The notes under the pieces: generated by a model | The model's database searches: none | What the model was told of the DNA's origin: nothing | What the model saw: the letters and a program-made list of their open reading frames with translations, nothing else | Program-made: the position numbers and the translations under genes | Virus record (IMG/VR): IMGVR_UViG_3300045988_010188 | DNA length: 43,735 nt | Source: a virus | Reading direction: 5' to 3' (one strand) | Shown here: piece by piece, positions 2,686 to 43,117 of the stretch | How the letters are laid out: each line of letters opens with the position of its first letter | How positions within the stretch are numbered: position 1 is the stretch's first letter

Positions 2686-3269
2686 TGAACATCTATGAAA
2701 AAATTGCCGCCGTCATGCAGGACGTGCAGTATCTTGCGAAGGACGACAACGTCTCTTTTGGGCAGACCAATTACAAGGCGCTGTCTGAGGAGAAGGTGAC
2801 GGTTATCATGCGGTCTGCCATGCTCAAGCACAAACTGGTGGTATTCCCCGTTGAGCAGAGCGCCACCAGAACCGGCAACATCACCCACGTTGACGTGAAA
2901 TATCGCATCGTGAACATCGACGATCCGGCTGATTACATCGAAGTGGTGTCTTGCGGCGACGGCGCGGACACTCAGGACAAGGGCAGCGGAAAAGCCATGA
3001 CATACGCTTTTAAGTACATGTGGCTGCGGACGTTTGCCATTCCCACCGGAGAAGACCCGGACAAGATCAGTTCTGCGCAGTTGGACGAAGAAGCCAAAAA
3101 GGCCATTACCTGCGAGGGATGCGGCAAGAAGATCACGGCAAAGCGATTCAAGGGCGCGGAATATTCCGCCGCTACCATCGCACAGAACGCCGTGGAGGCT
3201 TACGGCCGCCGTCTCTGCTGGGACTGCATGAAGGCCGCACGGGCGTCGATGGAGAACGCCGATGGCTGA
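2682..3269 (+). CDS. ERF-family single-strand annealing protein with a C-terminal zinc ribbon.
   Basis: MNIYEKIAAVMQDVQYLAKDD...GKAMTYAFKYMWLRTF is ERF-like. The C-terminus has CEGCGKK...CWDC. Confidence 0.75.
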   Translation: MMNIYEKIAAVMQDVQYLAKDDNVSFGQTNYKALSEEKVTVIMRSAMLKHKLVVFPVEQSATRTGNITHVDVKYRIVNIDDPADYIEVVSCGDGADTQDKGSGKAMTYAFKYMWLRTFAIPTGEDPDKISSAQLDEEAKKAITCEGCGKKITAKRFKGAEYSAATIAQNAVEAYGRRLCWDCMKAARASMENADG

Positions 3270-3594
3270 TCTGGTCAATGAGATCATGGACAAGAGCCGG
3301 ATGCTGGACGTTGCCATTTCCGAACTGAAACGGCGCGGCCAGAAATACGCGGAAGCAGAACGGGACTACCGCGTGGCCCTTGCCAAGCAGATGCTTTTGG
3401 AGCGCGACAACGGCATGCCAGTGACGATCATTTCTGATATCTGCAAAGGCAAGACGGAAATCGCTACGCTACGGTTTAATCGGGATTGTGCCGAGGTACT
3501 TTACAAGTCCGCGATGGAAGCCATCAATTCCATGAAACTGCAAATCCGGCTGATGGATTCTCAGCTTGATCGGGAATGGGGTGCGGCAAAGTGA
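3262..3594 (+). CDS. Hypothetical protein.
   Basis: ORF whose start and stop overlap those of both neighbours. No recognisable motif. Confidence 0.55.
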   Translation: MADLVNEIMDKSRMLDVAISELKRRGQKYAEAERDYRVALAKQMLLERDNGMPVTIISDICKGKTEIATLRFNRDCAEVLYKSAMEAINSMKLQIRLMDSQLDREWGAAK

Positions 3595-4163
3595 GCACGC
3601 GCCGAAAATACCGCTACAAGGGAGAAGAGAAGTATTTGCCCGAGTGGGCCACCATCTACGGCATGGGCATTACCACGCTGCGCAAACGGCTGTCTGCCGG
3701 ATGGTCGCTGCATGATGCGCTGACAACGCCAACACGGGAAAGGGCAAAGAATCTCCCATCGCGCAAAGCAAACCATGTGGGCGAAAAGCACGGCATGTTG
3801 AAGGTCGTTGCCTTTGCCGGGCGGAACGCCAGCGGGGAACTGACATGGAAGTGCAAATGCAAGTGTGGCGGAACACGCGTTGCCACAACGCGGATGCTGC
3901 GATACGTTACGCACTGCGGATGCCAGCGAAAAGGCAGAAGCAGGCGCAAGGGCGCCGCACCTACACACGATCAACCGTGCTGGACGTGCAAGAACTATGT
4001 CGACGGGTGCAGCTGGGCGCGGAAAGAACACCTTCCCGTCGAGGGGTGGGACGCTACGCCGACCACCAAATATCAAGGCTATACACGTCGCGGAGAGTTG
4101 CTGTCTTATGCCATCCACTATTGCCCGGAATACGTTTCGGACGGAACGGAGGGGAGAGGATGA
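3576..4163 (+). CDS. HTH plus Cys-rich DNA-binding protein.
   Basis: LPEWATIYGMGITTLRKRLSAGWSLHDAL is HTH-like, followed by CKCKCGG..CGC and CWTC..C clusters. An alternative start is GTG 3591 (GTGA overlap). Confidence 0.6.
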   Translation: MGCGKVSTRRKYRYKGEEKYLPEWATIYGMGITTLRKRLSAGWSLHDALTTPTRERAKNLPSRKANHVGEKHGMLKVVAFAGRNASGELTWKCKCKCGGTRVATTRMLRYVTHCGCQRKGRSRRKGAAPTHDQPCWTCKNYVDGCSWARKEHLPVEGWDATPTTKYQGYTRRGELLSYAIHYCPEYVSDGTEGRG

Positions 4164-4441
4164 TGGAAGAACGCAGATGCTTCCTGTGCGGCAGGAATGA
4201 CCCATCAGACCCACTTGAGCGGCACCATATCGTGGGCGGCCCGTACCGCAAGAAAAGCGAGAAATACGGCCTTGTGGTCTATCTCTGCGGCAACAGGTGC
4301 CACCGGAACGGCAGGGGCGCGGTACACCGCAACGGTGACCAGATGCGCCGCCTGCGCCGCTACGGGCAGCTCAAGGCCATGCAGGAACAGGGCTGGACGG
4401 AGGATGATTTCCGGCGCGAGTTCGGGAAATCGTACTTATAG
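4160..4441 (+). CDS. Small HNH/Ref-like zinc-finger protein.
   Basis: ATGA overlap start at 4160. Contains CFLCG...LERHHI...LCGNRCH...GAVH. The family name is from memory only. Confidence 0.55.
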   Translation: MMEERRCFLCGRNDPSDPLERHHIVGGPYRKKSEKYGLVVYLCGNRCHRNGRGAVHRNGDQMRRLRRYGQLKAMQEQGWTEDDFRREFGKSYL

Positions 4442-4449
4442 GAGGGGTT

Positions 4450-4668
4450 ATGACACAGTGCGAAAGAATCCTGGAATACATGGAGACGGTAGGCCCCATC
4501 ACACAGTTGGACGCCGCCCGCGAGTTTGGCTGCTACCGGCTGGGTGCGAGGATATGGGACTTGCGTCACGCAGGGCACGCCATCAGCAAGCGGACGGTGA
4601 CAAACAAGAACCGATACGGCGAGAGCGTGAGCTTTGCCGAGTACAGATTGGAGGATAAGAAATGCTGA
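4450..4668 (+). CDS. Winged-helix (HTH_39-like) protein.
   Basis: ILEYMETVGPITQLDAAREFGCYRLGARIWDLRHAGHAI matches the family pattern. Confidence 0.65.
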   Translation: MTQCERILEYMETVGPITQLDAAREFGCYRLGARIWDLRHAGHAISKRTVTNKNRYGESVSFAEYRLEDKKC

Positions 4669-5078
4669 ACAAAGTTTTCATCATGGGCCGGTTGACCCGC
4701 GATCCGGAGCTTCGGAGAACCAACAGCGGTACGGCGGTTACCAGCTTCACGCTGGCCGTTGACCGCGATTTTAAGAACGCGGATGGCACGAAGGAGACAG
4801 ACTTCATTGATTGCGTCGCGTGGCGATCCACGGCGGAGTTCGCGGCGAAGTACTTCACGAAGGGCCGTATGGCCGTTGTAGAGGGCAAGCTTCAGATCCG
4901 CGACTGGACGGACAAGGACGGCAACAAGCGCCGCAATGCGGAGGTCATTGCTGACAACCTGTACTTTTGCGACAGCCGCAGCGACAACGGCGGACATCAG
5001 GCGGCGAAAGCGCCGGTCAGCGTGGACGCGGAGGACTTCGACGAGGTCGAGGACGATGATAGCGACCTTCCGTTCTGA
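4662..5078 (+). CDS. ssb: Single-stranded DNA-binding protein.
   Basis: MLNKVFIMGRLTRDPELR..., an OB-fold pattern, and the acidic tail DDDSDLPF. Confidence 0.92.
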   Translation: MLNKVFIMGRLTRDPELRRTNSGTAVTSFTLAVDRDFKNADGTKETDFIDCVAWRSTAEFAAKYFTKGRMAVVEGKLQIRDWTDKDGNKRRNAEVIADNLYFCDSRSDNGGHQAAKAPVSVDAEDFDEVEDDDSDLPF

Positions 5079-5086
5079 GGTAAGTC

Positions 5087-5887
5087 ATGGCAAAGAGCGG
5101 GATCGACTACTTTCCGCTTGATGTCGCATTGGATGCAAAGCTTGAACTGATAGAGGCAGAATTTGGCTTGACAGGATTTGGTGTAGTCGTTCACTTGCTG
5201 CAAGAGATTTACGGTAAGGCGGGTTACTACATTGAATGGACAGAGGAGGTTGCGCTTTTGTTTGCCCGCAAGGTCGGGTTGGGTGGGAGCGTCGTTTCCG
5301 AAATAATAGAGGCTTCTATCAGACGAGGGATGTTCGACAAAGAGAAATATGACAAGTACCATGTGCTGACCTCAAAAGGGGTGCAGAAAAGGTACTTCGA
5401 GGCAGTCAGCCGCCGTAAAGTTCTCAGCGTCGATTACAACATCCTTCTGGTTAATGTCGCCCAAATTTGCCCCAATGTCAACATTCAGGCCGAAAATGTC
5501 AACATTTTTTCAAAAAATGCTGACATCGAAAAACAAAGTAAAGTAGAGAAGAGTAGAGTAGAGAAGAGTAAAGAAGATATATGCGCGGAGCCGCAAGCGG
5601 CATCCACGCCGCCCGTCGCCGAGCTTATTCTCAATGACGGAACGACATATGCCGTTCAGGAAACGGATGCGGCTCAATGGGAAAAGCTGTATCCAAACGT
5701 AAACGTGCGACAACAGCTCCGGAACATGGTAGGCTGGTGTGATTCCAATCCGGCGAAGCGCAAGACGCGCGGCGGCATTAAGAGGTTTATCACTTCGTGG
5801 CTTGCCAGAGAACAGGATCGCGGCGGAAAAGCACAGCAAAATAAGCCGTTTACCTATGACTACGGCAGCACGGAGGACAGCCTATGA
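5087..5887 (+). CDS. Replication initiator (DUF4373 / DnaD-like N-terminal domain).
   Basis: IDYFPLDVALDAKLELIEAEFGLTGFGVVVHLLQEIYGKAGYY. Located upstream of the DnaC-like loader. Contains iterons. Confidence 0.7.
   Translation: MAKSGIDYFPLDVALDAKLELIEAEFGLTGFGVVVHLLQEIYGKAGYYIEWTEEVALLFARKVGLGGSVVSEIIEASIRRGMFDKEKYDKYHVLTSKGVQKRYFEAVSRRKVLSVDYNILLVNVAQICPNVNIQAENVNIFSKNADIEKQSKVEKSRVEKSKEDICAEPQAASTPPVAELILNDGTTYAVQETDAAQWEKLYPNVNVRQQLRNMVGWCDSNPAKRKTRGGIKRFITSWLAREQDRGGKAQQNKPFTYDYGSTEDSL
5453..5570. repeat. Iteron-like repeats inside the initiator gene (candidate ori).
   Basis: AATG-type 12-mers start at 5453, 5474, 5495 and 5516, exactly 21 bp apart; the two central copies are both AATGTCAACATT. 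GTAGAGAAGAGTA then occurs at 5543 and 5558. Confidence 0.6.
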
Positions 5888-7315: not shown

Positions 7316-8020
7316 ATGAAAGCTTACAAGGGTTTTGACAAGAATTTGCAGTGCAGAGGTTTGCAATATGAGATCGGCGGTACGCAGGAAGTTGACAAAG
7401 TGAAACTGTGCAATCATGGCTTGCACGCTTGTGAAGCGCCGTTGGATGTATTCAGTTATTACGCGCCCGGCGAAGGAAGCCGGTATTGTGAAGTGGAAAT
7501 GGTCGGCGTGAGCGACGAACGCGGAGATGATAGCAAGCGCGTTGCCAAGAAGCTTACGGTGGGCGCGGAGATCGGTATTCCCGGCCTGGTAAAGGCTCAC
7601 GTTGAGTACGTCAAGGCGCATACCACAATGGAACATACCGACCAGAAAGCAGCCACCGCAGGCGATAGCGGCGCAGCCACCGCAGGCGATAGCGGCGCAG
7701 CCACCGCAGGCGCTTACGGCGCAGCCACCGCAGGCGATAGCGGCGCAGCCACCGCAGGCTATCGCGGCGCAGCCACCGCAGGCGCTTACGGCGCAGCCAC
7801 CGCAAAAGGATCTGTTTCTGTTGGCAAAAACGGATGCGGCCTTGTTCGCGGTAACGATGTGAAGATTAAAGGCGGTCTTGGTGCTGTGCTGGTGATCTGT
7901 GAGGAAAACGCGGACAATTGGGACATCAAAGAGTGGAAAGCGTTTGTCGTAGACGGCACGGACATCAGAGCGGACACATGGTATAAGCTGGTGGACGGAA
8001 AGTTGGTGGAGGCTGAGTAA
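7316..8020 (+). CDS. Repeat-containing protein of unknown function (N-terminal Cys/His domain, AATAGxxG repeats, C-terminal domain).
   Basis: MKAYKGFDKNLQCRG...LCNHGLHAC, then 6.5 octapeptide repeats. Resembles a widespread phage/bacterial DUF family, from memory. Confidence 0.7.
   Translation: MKAYKGFDKNLQCRGLQYEIGGTQEVDKVKLCNHGLHACEAPLDVFSYYAPGEGSRYCEVEMVGVSDERGDDSKRVAKKLTVGAEIGIPGLVKAHVEYVKAHTTMEHTDQKAATAGDSGAATAGDSGAATAGAYGAATAGDSGAATAGYRGAATAGAYGAATAKGSVSVGKNGCGLVRGNDVKIKGGLGAVLVICEENADNWDIKEWKAFVVDGTDIRADTWYKLVDGKLVEAE
7649..7804. repeat. 24-bp tandem repeat, 6.5 copies, in frame.
   Basis: Units of gcagccaccgcaggcgatagcggc start at 7649, 7673, 7697, 7721, 7745 and 7769, with a half unit at 7793. 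Variants differ only in the last 9 nt. Confidence 0.95.
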
Positions 8021-9093
8021 TGCTGCCAATCAATCAGCCGCTGACGAATGAAGCAGCAAAGAAACTGATGGCGCTGGACGTGCAGGACAAGGAGATACTG
8101 ACCTACGAGAAACTGGACGAGTGGTACACCGCATGGGGCGGGCAGTGCTACGTCAGTTTTTCCGGTGGAAAGGACAGCACGGTGCTGGCGTATCTGGCGG
8201 CTCGGTATCTGGCGAGCTTCAGGACACCGCCGTGGGAGCTGAACTTGGTGTTTGTGAACACTGGGTTGGAGTACCCGGAGATACAGAAGTTCGTCAATGA
8301 GTACGCCGACTGGCTGCGGAGGGAGTTCCCCCGCGTGACCGTAAACCTTCACCGTTTGCGGCCGAAGATGAACATCCGGCAGGTTGTAACGAAGTACGGG
8401 TACAGCATCATCGGTAAAGACGTAGCGCACCGGATAGAAACCGCGCGGCATTCACCAGATAGCCGAAGTATGAAACTATTGCGTGGGGAAGTCTTACGCG
8501 CCGATGGGAAAAAGAGTATGTACAACTGTGAAAAGTGGGAGTATTTGCTTTCGGCTCCATTTCTCATATCAGACAAGTGCTGTGGAATTATGAAAAAGTC
8601 CCCGTCAAAGAGCTATGAGCACCGAGCGGATGTCAAGCCCACGACGGCAACAATGGCGGAGGAAAGCCTTCTGCGTATGCAGAAATGGCGCGAAACCGGC
8701 TGCAACGCCTTTGAAGGAGGGCGTCCCTTATCTAAGCCCATGAGTTTCTGGACGGAGCAGGATGTGCTGCGGTTTATCGTGGAGCGGGGGCTACCCTACG
8801 CCAGCGTGTACGGCGACATCGTGGCCAGCGACGGCGAGAATGACTACGGCGCGACGCTGATCGACTGCAAGTTGCACTGCACGGGATGCCAGAGAACCGG
8901 GTGCTGCTATTGCGGATTTGGAAGTCATTTGGAAAAATCTCCCAACAGGTACGAGATGATGAAACTGACGCACCCGAAGCACTACCAGTTCTGCATCGGC
9001 GGTGGGGCGTTCGACACGGACGGACTGTGGAAACCCACGAAAGACGGCCTTGGCTATGCGCGGGTGCTGGACTACATCGGAGTGAGGTGTTGA
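8020..9093 (+). CDS. PAPS-reductase-family PP-loop protein (IbrA/DndC-like).
   Basis: PP-loop SFSGGKDST and a C-terminal Cys cluster CTGCQRTGCCYCGFG. Confidence 0.8.
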   Translation: MLPINQPLTNEAAKKLMALDVQDKEILTYEKLDEWYTAWGGQCYVSFSGGKDSTVLAYLAARYLASFRTPPWELNLVFVNTGLEYPEIQKFVNEYADWLRREFPRVTVNLHRLRPKMNIRQVVTKYGYSIIGKDVAHRIETARHSPDSRSMKLLRGEVLRADGKKSMYNCEKWEYLLSAPFLISDKCCGIMKKSPSKSYEHRADVKPTTATMAEESLLRMQKWRETGCNAFEGGRPLSKPMSFWTEQDVLRFIVERGLPYASVYGDIVASDGENDYGATLIDCKLHCTGCQRTGCCYCGFGSHLEKSPNRYEMMKLTHPKHYQFCIGGGAFDTDGLWKPTKDGLGYARVLDYIGVRC

Positions 9094-9094
9094 G

Positions 9095-9775
9095 ATGGGT
9101 AAGCAGACTGCGATAAACGCCGACTGTATGGAGTATATGCGGACGCTGCCGGACAAGGCATTTGACCTCGCCATTGTAGATCCGCCGTACTTCTCCGGCC
9201 CGGAACGCAGAGGGTATTACGGCAACAAGGTCAGTCCCATCGGCGTACACCGGGACTATCTAATTTCACCGAAGTGGGACATTCCGGGAACAGACTACTT
9301 TTCGCAGCTTGTGCGCGTGGCGAAAAAGTATATTGTATGGGGGTGTAATTACTTTGGTGTTGTTTTTCCGCCGGGGCGCATCGTTTGGGACAAGTGCAAC
9401 GGTAACAGTTCTTTTTCGGACTGCGAGATCGCGGCGACAAACTGCCACGATAGCGTTCGTATCTTTCGTTATATGTGGAACGGAATGTTTCAGGGGAAAA
9501 GCATCACGGACGGCACAACTCAGCAAGGAAACAAGGCACTAAACGAGGTACGCATCCATCCAACGCAGAAGCCGGTGGCGCTGTATGAATGGCTGCTGCA
9601 GAAGTACGCGAAAGAAGGTTGGCGCATTTTGGACACGCACCTCGGCAGCGGCTCAAGCCGTATTGCGGCCTACAACCTCGGCTTTGAGTTTGTGGGGTGC
9701 GAGATCGAACCGACATATTTCCAACTGCAAGAACAGCGGTTTGCGGAACATACGGCGCAGGAAAGGTTGTGGTGA
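9095..9775 (+). CDS. DNA amino-methyltransferase (N6A or N4C, beta-class motif order).
   Basis: DPPY motif near the N-terminus, HPTQKP, and an AdoMet motif ILDTHLGSGSS near the C-terminus. Confidence 0.88.
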   Translation: MGKQTAINADCMEYMRTLPDKAFDLAIVDPPYFSGPERRGYYGNKVSPIGVHRDYLISPKWDIPGTDYFSQLVRVAKKYIVWGCNYFGVVFPPGRIVWDKCNGNSSFSDCEIAATNCHDSVRIFRYMWNGMFQGKSITDGTTQQGNKALNEVRIHPTQKPVALYEWLLQKYAKEGWRILDTHLGSGSSRIAAYNLGFEFVGCEIEPTYFQLQEQRFAEHTAQERLW

Positions 9776-9778
9776 CGC

Positions 9779-10054
9779 ATGGGCAAGCAGCGTTTGAGCA
9801 GGGACGACCGCATCTTTATGCGGGGCAAGCTACAGGGCACACGGGAGAACATGGACATGGTGGCAATGGTACTGATGGATAAATGCGGCTGGCACGTCCA
9901 AGAGGAGACAGCGGACAGCCGGGACACGCAGAGCATCGCGTATCTGTACGAGTGCCTGGAGAAGCTGGCGGAGGAAATAAACGAGGGCCGCATCAAGCGG
10001 AAGCACATCAAGGACGTGCTGAAGGACGAGTGCGGCGTTGTGTTTGGAGATTGA
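9779..10054 (+). CDS. Hypothetical protein.
   Basis: Packed ORF between the two methyltransferase genes. Confidence 0.5.
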   Translation: MGKQRLSRDDRIFMRGKLQGTRENMDMVAMVLMDKCGWHVQEETADSRDTQSIAYLYECLEKLAEEINEGRIKRKHIKDVLKDECGVVFGD

Positions 10055-10058
10055 TGGA

Positions 10059-11498
10059 ATGAAAATACTGATCGGCGGAAGCCCCTGCACACATTGGAGT
10101 ATCGCACAGACCAAGAACCGCGAAACCGAGGCCAGCGGCGTCGGCTGGGAGTTGTTTCTGAATTATCGCATCGCACGGGACAAGTACCAGCCGGACTATT
10201 TTCTCTACGAGAACAACAAGAGTATGTCGCCCGCCATCCGGGCGCAGATCACGGCGGAGCTGGGCGTGGAACCCGTGCTTATCAACTCCGCGCTGGTATC
10301 GGCGCAGAACAGACAGCGCTTGTATTGGGTGGGCAGACGGAACCCGGACGGCACATACAACCAAGTGCCGGTGGAGCAGCCGGTGAACCGTGGGACCCTC
10401 CTGCGCGACATTCTGGAAAGTGGTGTCTGCTGGAAAGAAAAAGGGTATGCCCTGCTGTCCACAACTGGCGGAACCACGGCGGACGACATGGTTTCCAGAC
10501 ACCAGCGGAATGGTGCGGCGGAACCTGTTGCCATTAAGCCGCTGACCGAAAAAGAAATGGATTATATGGTGCGCGAAACCAAGGACGGGCGGAATCATTT
10601 TGATTTCGATTATTTCCACGACGCAATGAAGGGAAAAAGCGCCTGCGTGACGGCGAACACCCACAAGGGCGTCCCGTATAACGTTCTGGTGGAGCCGGTG
10701 AGGATCGGACCATTGAGAACGACGCAAAGAACCAGACTTTTGACAGCCAGCAATACAGGGGTTACAGCCCGGACGCCAAAAAGCGTAACCCTCTGCGGGA
10801 ATGGCGGCGGCCTGGGTGCAAAAACCGGGCTTTATGCCGTGCCTGTGGCTGGGCGCGTCGTGGGACGCAGGATCAACGAGCAAGGCCACCGCGACGATTA
10901 CAACGAAGCGATCCCACATTTCCAGTATTTCGAGGTAAACGAAGAACCGCAGAAAACCAACTGCCTGACAACCGTTCAGAAAGACAATATGATTGCCGTC
11001 CCCGTTATCCCGGACGGGAAAGGGCAGTTTGTAATTAAGGCGGCAGGCGGAAAAGAAATCCCAGTTTACGAGGTTCGCGGCGGGCGGATCACCATCAAAG
11101 AAAAGACATACCCCATTAAACTGGCAGACGGATTTTACATCATTCGCAAACTGACCGTAACGGAATGTAAACGCCTCCAGACCGTGCCGGACACATACGC
11201 CTTTCCCGTCAGCGACACCCAGGCGTATAAAATGCTGGGCAACGGCTGGACCGTGGATGTGATTGCCCACATTATGAGCCATTTTACCGGGCTGACGGAG
11301 GAGCCGGTGGAAGTGCTTTCTATGTACGACGGTATGAGCTGCGGGCATATTGCATTGGAAAAGATGGGTGTGAATGTTACAACATACTATGCAACCGAGA
11401 TCGACAAATACGCCGTACAGACCACACAGCACAATTACCCGGACACCATGCAACTGGGCGACGCTTTCCAAGTACGAAAGGAGGATTGGGTGCTATGA
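10059..11498 (+). CDS. DNA (cytosine-5) methyltransferase with circularly permuted motif order (IV-X, then I-III).
   Basis: GGSPCTHWS (IV), YENN (VI), QNRQRLYW (VIII), LTVTECKRLQTVPDTY (IX), GNGWTVDVI (X), then C-terminal VLSMYDGMSCGHIALEKMG (I), YATEIDKYA (II), QLGDA (III). GGAGA RBS before ATG 10059. Confidence 0.85.
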   Translation: MKILIGGSPCTHWSIAQTKNRETEASGVGWELFLNYRIARDKYQPDYFLYENNKSMSPAIRAQITAELGVEPVLINSALVSAQNRQRLYWVGRRNPDGTYNQVPVEQPVNRGTLLRDILESGVCWKEKGYALLSTTGGTTADDMVSRHQRNGAAEPVAIKPLTEKEMDYMVRETKDGRNHFDFDYFHDAMKGKSACVTANTHKGVPYNVLVEPVRIGPLRTTQRTRLLTASNTGVTARTPKSVTLCGNGGGLGAKTGLYAVPVAGRVVGRRINEQGHRDDYNEAIPHFQYFEVNEEPQKTNCLTTVQKDNMIAVPVIPDGKGQFVIKAAGGKEIPVYEVRGGRITIKEKTYPIKLADGFYIIRKLTVTECKRLQTVPDTYAFPVSDTQAYKMLGNGWTVDVIAHIMSHFTGLTEEPVEVLSMYDGMSCGHIALEKMGVNVTTYYATEIDKYAVQTTQHNYPDTMQLGDAFQVRKEDWVL

Positions 11499-11821
11499 CA
11501 AGAGACGAAATCATAACCGCGCTGCGGTGCTGTGAGCAGCATAAGAAATGCGAAGGAGCGTGTCCTCTGATTGCCGAGTTTGGATGTATCGAAAAAGCGA
11601 TGGGATACGCCGCTGACTTGATCGAGAACCAGCAGCGGCACATCGAGGCACTGTTGCAGGCTAACGCCGCCCTGCGGGATACCGTACTGCGGCGGGATGC
11701 GCAGATCGAGAAGATGAGCGCAGACCGGAAAGCCCTTATCAACGAGCTATGCCAATACTGCGGGAAGTACAAACGAGCACACGAGGGCGCCTGTGACGGG
11801 TGCAAATGGAGGGAAATGTGA
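11495..11821 (+). CDS. Cys-rich protein with a coiled coil.
   Basis: ATGA overlap with the MTase stop. Contains CCEQHKKCEGACP and CQYCG...CDGC. Confidence 0.6.
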   Translation: MTRDEIITALRCCEQHKKCEGACPLIAEFGCIEKAMGYAADLIENQQRHIEALLQANAALRDTVLRRDAQIEKMSADRKALINELCQYCGKYKRAHEGACDGCKWREM

Positions 11822-41516: not shown

Positions 41517-42560
41517 TTATTTTTCATTTGTAATTTCATCTGTAATTTTTGCAGAAAAGTAGTTGTTGATGGCTGCGTTAGCTTCTGACTTGTCGCTGTC
41601 GAAAACATAGGAATACGTCTTGCGGTAGGTGCTTTCACAACTCCATCCGCCGCGTTCCATTGCGTAGCGATCATCTATGCCCACCGCTTTCATCACGGCG
41701 GCGTTGGTGTGGCGCAGACCGTGCACGGTGGTATCTGTTATCCCGGCAGCGGCGCACGCTCTGTGCACATGCTTGCGGACAGTGTCCGGATGCATCGGGA
41801 ATAGTCTGCCGTCAGACCGGTGCGGGAGTTGCCGTATCTTTTCCATGATGTATTCCGGGCAATCTACTGTTCGCTGGCTGCTGATGTTTTTTGCCGTGTC
41901 TTTCTGTACCCACTTATTGTTTTCGTCCGGCACAATGGCGCGGCGAATGTGTAAGAGATTGTTCTCTGTGTCTACACAGTCCCAGCACAGGCCGACGATC
42001 TCTGAGCGGCGCATACCCAGCCAGACGGCCAGCAAAATGGGAATCTCGCAGGAATCGCCCTGAATAGCTTCTGCCAGTTTACCGATGTCCTTAGGCTGCA
42101 AATATTTTTTCACCGGCTTTTGAATCTGCGGCAAGCGCACACCAAACACATCAACGCCGCACTCTTTCAAAACCGGGCGAACAAGGCCGTATGCGTTAGC
42201 TACAGTTTTAGCGGACACTTTTTTCGATTCCGCGTTTACCGCCATCTGCACATCCATCTTTGTAATGCTGTTTACATTGCGTTTCATCAACTTGTCAAAT
42301 CTATGTTTTTGCGCTGTTCGATATCCTCGCACTGTAGCGGGGGAAAGAACGGCGCTTTTGCTTTCTATATACTGGTCAATGGCGGCTGTCAGAGTAAGAC
42401 TTTCTGTTTTCGGCTCCACCTTTGCGCCGCCCTTAATGGCGGCAGCTTTCTTTTCCACATCTTTTTTGGTAGGGGCTGTGACAGATATCCGCTGACCTTC
42501 AATCATCATATTGATGTTCCAGTTGCCGGATTTCAGTTTGACAGCCTTTGGGATCTTCAT
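41517..42560 (-). CDS. int: Tyrosine integrase.
   Basis: MRRSEI...HGLRHT...Y catalytic pattern and an N-terminal arm-binding-like domain. The start is moved to MKIPKAV (GGAGAGGAGA RBS). Confidence 0.9.
   Translation of the reverse strand: MKIPKAVKLKSGNWNINMMIEGQRISVTAPTKKDVEKKAAAIKGGAKVEPKTESLTLTAAIDQYIESKSAVLSPATVRGYRTAQKHRFDKLMKRNVNSITKMDVQMAVNAESKKVSAKTVANAYGLVRPVLKECGVDVFGVRLPQIQKPVKKYLQPKDIGKLAEAIQGDSCEIPILLAVWLGMRRSEIVGLCWDCVDTENNLLHIRRAIVPDENNKWVQKDTAKNISSQRTVDCPEYIMEKIRQLPHRSDGRLFPMHPDTVRKHVHRACAAAGITDTTVHGLRHTNAAVMKAVGIDDRYAMERGGWSCESTYRKTYSYVFDSDKSEANAAINNYFSAKITDEITNEK
41525..41549. promoter_or_regulatory. Arm-type repeat copies (P' arm) inside the last codons of int.
   Basis: CATTTGTAATTT at 41525-41536 and ATCTGTAATTTT at 41538-41549. 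They encode ...ITDEITNEK. Confidence 0.55.
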
Positions 42561-43117
42561 TCTCCTCTCCCCTTTTCTTCTGTAATCTTCTTCGCATATC
42601 GCAGGGCGTTCAAAAACGCCGACGCGATCACGCCAACGCCGACGGCCAGCAGGACAATGACGATCCATGCCAAAGTGATAGCCTGTTTACCCTGAATAAT
42701 ACCGACGTTTGGCAACTGATAGTCAAACACCACATAGCCGATTAACGTCATTAGCAAAACCACAGCAAGGACGGAGATACTGTAAAGCGATATTCGCATA
42801 CGCTTCTCGGTCTTGGAAAGCTGTTCTATCCGTCCTTCCAGATTTGCCGTTACCAGCTCCGCTTTGTGATCGCGTTCCATTTGTTCTATTTGCTCTTCCG
42901 GCAGAACATCCGGCGTGATGCCAAAATACTTGTCCAGTGAAACACCACAAGCACGGCATATGTTGCCGGAGTTATTTACAGTTGGCGTTTTAGATGTAGA
43001 TGCAAAAAAGTTTTGCACACTGGAAAGCGGCACGTTGGAATTGTCTGCAACGACCTGATTGGTCATACCCTGTCGGTCTCTGGCCTCTCTGCATATATCC
43101 TGTAAAGACTTGCTCAT
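42557..43117 (-). CDS. Membrane-anchored XRE-type HTH protein, translationally coupled to int.
   Basis: The N-terminus MTNQVVADNSNVPLSSVQNFF is HTH-like. It is followed by a coiled segment and two TM helices. ATGA overlap with the int start. Confidence 0.75.
   Translation of the reverse strand: MSKSLQDICREARDRQGMTNQVVADNSNVPLSSVQNFFASTSKTPTVNNSGNICRACGVSLDKYFGITPDVLPEEQIEQMERDHKAELVTANLEGRIEQLSKTEKRMRISLYSISVLAVVLLMTLIGYVVFDYQLPNVGIIQGKQAITLAWIVIVLLAVGVGVIASAFLNALRYAKKITEEKGRGE

Follow-up and report, generated by a model that had tools for sequence, protein, structure and literature searches.

A natural circular permutation between motifs III and IV in a predicted C5 cytosine DNA methyltransferase from a gut phage

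C5 cytosine DNA methyltransferases are a textbook enzyme family with a fixed motif order. Multispecific enzymes of Bacillus phages (M.SPRI and M.Phi3TI type) have this canonical order and carry tandem recognition modules between motifs VIII and IX; in plant DRM enzymes the break falls between motifs V and VI, so that VI-X are followed by I-V. The gene described here lies on IMGVR_UViG_3300045988_010188, a viral stretch of 43,735 nucleotides (nt) that was analysed whole (the window; positions refer to the whole stretch). It encodes a predicted C5 methyltransferase of 479 amino acids (aa) in which motifs IV-X are followed by motifs I-III.

20,677 REBASE entries were screened for motif X before motif I in a 2018 study (PMC5944983), yielding 27 natural permuted C5 enzymes. 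All 27 are broken in the variable region (Type H/J), and enzymes split between III and IV (Type C) were laboratory constructs only. The study remarks on the uniformity of the natural permutation patterns and asks why nature seems to use one topology; for the non-natural Type B arrangement it proposes weaker AdoMet binding as the reason why it is absent from nature. Ten active permutation types were engineered, and 17 of 21 designed M.MpeI and M.SssI permutants had detectable activity. M.HaeIII variants with a new N-terminus in the II-IV region, some of them between III and IV, likewise proved active in E. coli (Peisajovich et al., 2006, as cited in PMC5944983). No description of a natural III/IV-split C5 enzyme was found in full-text literature searches, which covered an incomplete collection and did not query REBASE directly; an earlier note on the window, made from its sequence, had likewise been aware of no such topology.

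Motif order was determined by profile and pairwise alignment. The window protein matched PF00145 at 108.4 bits (cut-off 22), split into three separate stretches. In a scan of fragments, profile positions 63-194 were covered by residues 1-122, and positions 2-56 by the last 66 residues (E = 1e-4). De-permuting the protein, with residues 407-479 put first, produced a single contiguous match to profile positions 2-240 at 121 bits. With phmmer against the PDB, residues 407-472 aligned to DNMT3A 7-73 (motifs I-III), residues 3-126 to DNMT3A 86-209 (IV-VIII) and residues 368-407 to DNMT3A 245-286 (IX-X). Plant DRM2 aligned in one piece over the X-to-I junction (residues 383-470 to DRM2 195-282). The order is IV-VI-VIII-target-recognition region-IX-X-linker-I-II-III-stop and not the canonical I to X. 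Membership of the PF00145 superfamily is indicated by the profile score, the Pro-Cys of motif IV, the Glu of motif VI, the QxRxR of motif VIII and the S-adenosylmethionine (AdoMet) motifs I-III. The earlier note had read the open reading frame (ORF) as a IV-X then I-III enzyme and had proposed a profile alignment as a check; the reordered hits and the contiguous de-permuted match agree with it, and the C-terminal residues align as motifs I-III. The motifs that it quoted were all found in place, as was the 11-aa linker between X and I (residues 406-416).

The break point was located with canonical relatives that are contiguous across motifs III and IV. phi92 gp043 reads ...QLGDVTKWREWDIPWGEIDLLLGGSPCQ over this region (fuller stretch ...IQLGDVTKWREWDIPWGEIDLLLGGSPCQ), and P0238, a canonical member of the PCTxWS subfamily, reads ...LGDAYGVDGWNIGPVDLLLGGSPCTHWS. 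The window protein ends in ...QLGDAFQVRKEDWVL-stop (also given as ...LGDAFQVRKEDWVL) and starts with MKILIGGSPCTHWS. Judged from these sequences, the cut falls in the III/IV loop, where the earlier note had put it, and the permutation is almost unit-length, with essentially nothing lost or duplicated. New termini between III and IV with the old termini joined correspond to Type C as defined in PMC5944983. In Type H, IX-X precede I-VIII; here motif IV forms the N-terminus, with the recognition region and IX-X in mid-chain. The DRM order (VI-X before I-V) does not fit either, motif IV being N-terminal, and the X-to-I junction alone is in common. The earlier note had likewise placed the breaks of the M.BssHII and DRM types elsewhere.

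The engineered Type C M.MpeI and M.SssI enzymes and group-1 M.HaeIII permutants resemble the window enzyme in having their N-terminus between III and IV and their old termini fused, either directly or through a short linker, as described in PMC5944983. They are laboratory constructs from unrelated parents, whereas the window enzyme is natural, clade-wide and multi-module, with inteins or fused domains in some relatives. Type H enzymes (M.BssHII, M.Alw26I, M2.Eco31I, M.Esp3I and M2.BsaI) are also permuted with motif X linked to I, but they break in the variable region (IX-X-I...VIII) and are restriction-modification enzymes; the window enzyme has a III/IV break and belongs to phages and prophages. 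Plant DRM2 (PDB 7L4C, 4ONJ) has the same contiguous X-to-I junction but is eukaryotic and RNA-directed and carries UBA domains. The multispecific phage C5 methyltransferases are a possible parallel in module layout; module number is variable in relatives of the window enzyme too. The best solved-structure matches in sequence and fold, for both halves, were the catalytic domains of DNMT3A, 3B and 3C, which are eukaryotic, have canonical order and very short recognition regions, and are 24-31% identical over ~125-131 Foldseek-aligned columns. Canonical sisters (phi92 gp043 of an Escherichia phage, the C5 methyltransferase of Vibrio phage 1.147.O, and P0179 and P0238 of the PCTxWS subfamily) were 33-38% identical by tblastn. 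P0179 and P0238 share the PCT(H/Y)WS motif IV with the window enzyme; in phi92 gp043 and the Vibrio phage enzyme this motif reads PCQ. These sisters share recognition module types with the permuted group, and some share an intein insertion site, but unlike the window enzyme they have normal I-to-X order and an intact III/IV loop.

Homologues were searched for among 1.84 billion cluster representatives (50% identity). 9087 were obtained, and the best 150 were classified with three query fragments into 70 permuted enzymes, 40 canonical enzymes, 2 tandem double enzymes and, for the rest, fragments. The 57 permuted representatives that are complete start M-x-K-L-L-I-GGSPCTxWS and end GDAFQVRxxxWx(L/I) a few residues before the stop. 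A scan of GTDB, one genome per species, gave 354 confirmed Clostridia loci, and ORFs were examined in the best 80, which are prophage-like; permuted enzymes made up 79 of the 81 methyltransferase ORFs, the remaining two being partial. Motif IV lay at most ~40 residues from the upstream stop in nearly all of them. The database survey that the earlier note had suggested thus recovered the same topology in both collections. Relatives of 475-481 aa that are 86-94% identical occur on many other contigs, and a protein identical to the window enzyme (P0001) occurs on 2 contigs. Hosts are Oscillospiraceae, Lachnospiraceae and other Clostridia, cultured isolates included. Two isolate examples in RefSeq, from Anaerotruncus colihominis (WP_243157858.1) and Robinsoniella peoriensis (WP_377146717.1), are both named 'DNA cytosine methyltransferase', and the copy in phage nd4 (OR777945) is annotated as hypothetical. 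Close relatives derive from human faecal viromes, and one 90%-identity cluster has 3997 member sequences. Across these sequence collections the topology is widespread rather than unique to the window, and it marks a large clade with a generic database name.

A separate motif I-III module upstream of motif IV was considered and rejected. The 91-aa upstream ORF had no Pfam or PHROG match, and for 79 of the 81 methyltransferases the stop-to-stop ORF contained no I-III match before motif IV.

Conservation was scored over 48 permuted sequences that share 41-94% identity with the query. Invariant residues were G7, P9, C10 and T11 (motif IV), E51 and N52 (VI), S81, A82, Q83, R85, R87 and Y89 (VIII), Q374 and P377 (IX), N395 and W397 (X), S421, D424 and G425 (I), E447 (II) and G467 (III). 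At least 90% of the 48 also retained R363, L365, E369, C370, R372, L373 and T375 in motif IX, G429 in motif I, and D468, A469, F470 and R473 in motif III. Linkers similar to the X-to-I linker of the window were present in all permuted relatives. Pairwise ratios of non-synonymous to synonymous substitution (dN/dS) between the window gene and relatives of 70-89% identity were 0.11-0.16 for the linker plus I-III and 0.09-0.12 for IV-VIII, and higher for the recognition region. The relocated I-III module is under purifying selection comparable to that on the catalytic module. A dN/dS comparison with a 94%-identical relative gave no information, since the two cores hardly differ and a frameshifted stretch dominates the difference in the recognition region.

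An AlphaFold2 (AF2) model was built from the conservation alignment. The predicted local distance difference test score (pLDDT) was at least 90 for the greater part of residues 1-120 and 370-479, and strands and helices came in the expected order; strand beta4 was placed at residues 2-7 (pLDDT ~88) and beta1 at 417-422 (pLDDT >90). Foldseek searches with the model returned DNMT3A/B/C, M.HhaI and M.HaeIII at probability 1.0; structure prediction was another check proposed in the earlier note. TM-scores were 0.2-0.5; they understate the similarity because the alignment must follow sequence order and cannot cross the permutation. A search of a viral structure library with the model returned nothing further.

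The target-recognition region, which the earlier note had put at about 290 aa, in fact spans ~226 aa (residues 126-351) and is a modular array. Relatives of 479-686 aa differ by insertion, duplication or loss of ~50-aa recognition modules; in the longer ones (up to 686 aa) the ends are identical in type and differences are confined to the middle. Alignment to the 94%-identical L084 shows that the window lacks 1 nt near 10709 (GGACC in place of GGAACC) and has 1 nt extra in the A-run near 10779-10783, 70 nt further on, where the frame is restored. The alternative frame over the shifted stretch reads TIENDAKNQTFDSQQYRGYSPDAK, as in relatives. P0011 has the first shift in common with the window, and its frame is restored earlier. 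Compensation keeps the downstream IX-X-I-III in frame, which points to selection on the reading frame, and the frameshift pair suggests that one recognition module was lost selectively while the rest of the enzyme was kept.

On one Clostridia contig (L023) two permuted methyltransferase genes are adjacent, at 2998-4173 and 4231-5769, and their recognition regions differ.

Three homologues are possible intermediates of permutation by duplication, as judged by their motif content. P0226 (618 aa) consists of two complete canonical enzymes with a ~13-aa linker between them. P0127 (962 aa, PCTxWS subfamily) also contains two complete enzymes, and its residues 75-390 already correspond to a IV-X-linker-I-III unit. 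P0251 (556 aa) has a partial first copy ahead of a complete second copy. The permuted enzyme would have arisen, probably once, by head-to-tail fusion of two enzyme copies, of which the first then lost I-III and the second IV-X. Tandem duplication with truncation, the origin offered in the earlier note, is made plausible by the existence of natural tandem-fused double enzymes (P0127, P0226); the route itself we infer.

Trees were calculated by neighbour-joining on a de-permuted core alignment. With BLOSUM62 distances all 57 permuted sequences formed one pure clade. Against this, the full-data tree from Kimura distances lacked that split, and bootstrap support was 44/100. Weighing the BLOSUM62 clade against the missing Kimura split, a single origin of the permuted clade is probable on these alignments but not established.

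Large inserts 'between III and IV' had raised the suspicion that inteins caused the permutation. The inserts are inteins with Hint and LAGLIDADG domains, or mini-inteins, and interrupt motif IV at GGSP|C...VHN|C, with the catalytic Cys as the +1 extein residue. The insertion point lies ~7-10 residues downstream of the break, and an intein as the cause was rejected. Carriers are canonical (P0135, P0152, P0153, P0156, P0191) as well as permuted (P0269, P0233, P0159, P0160), and because the site is inside motif IV and occupied in both groups, the intein is a separate feature. The N-extein is ~10 residues long in the permuted hosts; the window allele has no intein.

Additional domains after motif III were seen in several permuted relatives. 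In L059 (2953-5343) a D12 (Dam-like) N6-adenine methyltransferase domain is fused at this position, and the tail of L078 (2437-5448) is closely similar to it, as judged by eye. P0038 carries an N4/N6 methylase domain (PF01555). L013 (2932-5037) has a borderline Mom-like domain (27.0 bits; cut-off 27.1), and the tail of L038 (2932-5118) is equal to that of L013 in length.

Taken together, the gene is with good confidence assigned to an AdoMet-dependent DNA cytosine-5 methyltransferase that is a natural circular permutant of a gut-Clostridia phage. Its C-terminal beta1-beta3 half-sheet would pack on the N-terminal beta4 and rebuild the seven-stranded class-I methyltransferase sheet and the active site, so that canonical chemistry is expected. 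Cys10 would attack C6 of the flipped cytosine while Glu51 protonates N3; Arg85 and Arg87 would hold the base, and the methyl group would come from AdoMet. Methylation of the phage DNA as protection from host restriction is the probable and most economical role. Specificity and assembly as a monomer are, like this chemistry, predictions. A wider account, towards which we lean slightly, is that the enzyme belongs to the first recognised natural III/IV-permuted ('Type C') C5 clade, abundant in phages and prophages of gut Clostridia, active, derived from a fused double enzyme, and diversified by module shuffling, inteins at the catalytic Cys and C-terminal domain fusions.

Several observations weigh against the assignment. 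With TIGR00675 (dcm) the protein reached 94 bits over 3 stretches, short of the 100.65 cut-off, which is consistent with the split alignment of a permuted protein. Motif IV has PCT where PCQ is usual, and motif VI has ENN where ENV is usual; the PCT variant also occurs in the canonical sister group. For the recognition region as a whole the AF2 model is not reliable, and one recognition module of the window copy is scrambled by the frameshift. A relative in a prophage of Oscillibacter sp. 1-3 (L036 2995-4461) reads GGSPYTHWS, with Tyr in place of the catalytic Cys; this copy is presumably inactive, and some copies evidently decay. Enzymatic activity of the window protein is, finally, something we infer from its sequence.

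The alternative that survives best, although unlikely, is activity only as a domain-swapped dimer or oligomer, in which I-III of one chain completes IV-X of another. C5 methyltransferases that are split into complementing fragments work in trans (PMC5944983), the nearest solved relatives, DNMT3A/B, are oligomeric, and a monomer prediction by AF2 cannot tell intra-chain from inter-chain packing. That prediction nevertheless packs both halves at pLDDT >90, and the 11-aa linker is about as long as the X-to-I junction of DRM2. In addition, the engineered M.HaeIII, M.MpeI and M.SssI permutants are single-chain and active, according to PMC5944983.

Less probable still is that the gene is a decaying, inactive fusion of two adjacent methyltransferase genes, kept by chance or hitch-hiking in prophages. 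The frameshifted module, the Oscillibacter copy and the many database members that are fragments would suit such decay. They are set against ends kept in 57 diverged representatives, catalytic and cofactor residues that are all invariant in the 48 sequences, dN/dS of ~0.1 in both core halves, and a frameshift that is compensated and leaves the downstream part in frame. Permuted members moreover retain intact inteins at the catalytic Cys, and such persistence is to be expected only if the spliced host protein is of importance.

A methyltransferase fold with other chemistry or another substrate (a different C5 modification, single-stranded DNA or RNA, or the first step of a hypermodification) is very improbable. 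The unusual PCT(H/Y)WS and ENN motifs, the relatives with Dam-like and, at borderline score, Mom-like domains fused after motif III, and the phosphoadenosine phosphosulfate (PAPS)-reductase-like gene just upstream could be read in this way. However, every residue for canonical methyl transfer is present, the recognition modules are like those of ordinary C5 methyltransferases, including the single module of phi92 gp043, and no TET-like or other hypermodification gene was found among the neighbour genes tested.

A local misassembly or chimeric contig, which the earlier note had named as grounds for refuting the topology, is effectively refuted: the window is apparently a metagenomic assembly and identical or near-identical proteins come from metagenome contigs, but the same order recurs on dozens of independent contigs, in genomes of cultured isolates and in phage nd4, and the gene lies mid-contig with coupled neighbours.

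The coordinates of the methyltransferase gene, its motifs and its neighbours are collected in Table 1. The ORF has 479 codons plus TGA, with ATG at 10059 and the stop at 11496-11498, and the preceding ORF ends with a stop at 10052-10054. With the GGAG upstream and the ATGA overlap downstream, both ends are the usual junctions of closely packed phage genes. Initiation at a TTG at 10038 would lengthen the ORF by 7 codons; relatives begin at the equivalent of the ATG (M-K-I/L-L-I-GGSPC). The window is a phage genome encoding a replication initiator, DnaC-like loader, Holliday-junction resolvase, terminase, portal, major head protein (capsid), tape measure and endolysin, and is that of a temperate siphovirus-like phage of gut Clostridia, with a host probably in the Oscillospiraceae. 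The N4/N6 methyltransferase and the permuted C5 enzyme form a small DNA-modification module; PF01555 was found in the equivalent N4/N6 gene of L084.

Table 1. Features of the methyltransferase locus and selected genes elsewhere in the window
Feature	Position	Strand	Evidence
Predicted circularly permuted C5 DNA methyltransferase, complete gene, 479 aa + stop	10059..11498	+	ORF list; PF00145 108 bits
GGAG ribosome-binding site, 9 nt 5' of ATG 10059	10046..10049	+	direct sequence reading
Motif IV (ILIGGSPCTHWS, residues 3-14), predicted catalytic Cys10	10065..10100	+	aligned from DNMT3A 86 onward
Motif VI (YFLYENN, residues 47-53), Glu51	10197..10217	+	E51, N52 invariant; PDB alignment
Motif VIII (SAQNRQRLYW, residues 81-90)	10299..10328	+	S81, A82, Q83, R85, R87, Y89 invariant
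Variable target-recognition region, residues 126-351	10434..11111	+	module number varies in relatives; low AF2 confidence; dN/dS above core
Out-of-frame stretch, ~24 codons, first recognition module	10709..10783	+	DNA alignment to 94%-identical L084
Motif IX (RKLTVTECKRLQTVPDTY, residues 363-380)	11145..11198	+	best Pfam stretch, 360-407 to profile 273-320
Motif X (YKMLGNGWTVDVIAHI, residues 390-405)	11226..11273	+	N395, W397 invariant; aligns with M.HhaI and DNMT3A C-terminal helix
11-aa linker (MSHFTGLTEEP, residues 406-416), motif X to motif I	11274..11306	+	contiguous DRM2 alignment across junction
Motif I (VEVLSMYDGMSCGHIALEK, residues 417-435), AdoMet-binding loop after strand beta1	11307..11363	+	aligned from DNMT3A 7 onward
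Motif II (YYATEIDKYA, residues 443-452), Glu447	11385..11414	+	E447 invariant; PDB alignment
Motif III and new C-terminus (MQLGDAFQVRKEDWVL, residues 464-479)	11448..11495	+	G467 invariant; ending kept in 57 representatives
ATGA overlap, methyltransferase stop and next gene start	11495..11498	+	direct reading; identical gene order in L084
PAPS-reductase-like gene, followed directly by the N4/N6 methyltransferase gene	8020-9093		phrog_424
N4/N6 amino-methyltransferase (DPPY motif)	9095..9775	+	phrog_23224 and phrog_67, E = 5e-56
91-aa ORF between N4/N6 and C5 methyltransferases	9779-10054		no Pfam or PHROG match; position kept in L084
108-aa Cys-rich ORF downstream of C5 methyltransferase	11495-11821		no Pfam or PHROG match; position kept in L084
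Serine recombinase or invertase-like gene, mid-genome	18362-19126
Tyrosine integrase near window end	41517-42668	-

The natural III/IV permutation is a new topology within a well-known enzyme family, and its sequences were already public under a generic name. If true, it overturns the 2018 conclusion of a single natural permutation topology, and a large natural III/IV clade answers part of the question why only one topology seems to be used. The extant tandem-fused relatives provide a natural series of stages for testing permutation by duplication. Order-dependent profiles score permuted enzymes lower, as with TIGR00675 here, and classification by motif order misses such methyltransferases. 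A naturally optimised Type C scaffold could serve the design of split or targeted methyltransferases. The family is common in human-gut phages and therefore probably shapes the 5-methylcytosine patterns of gut viromes.

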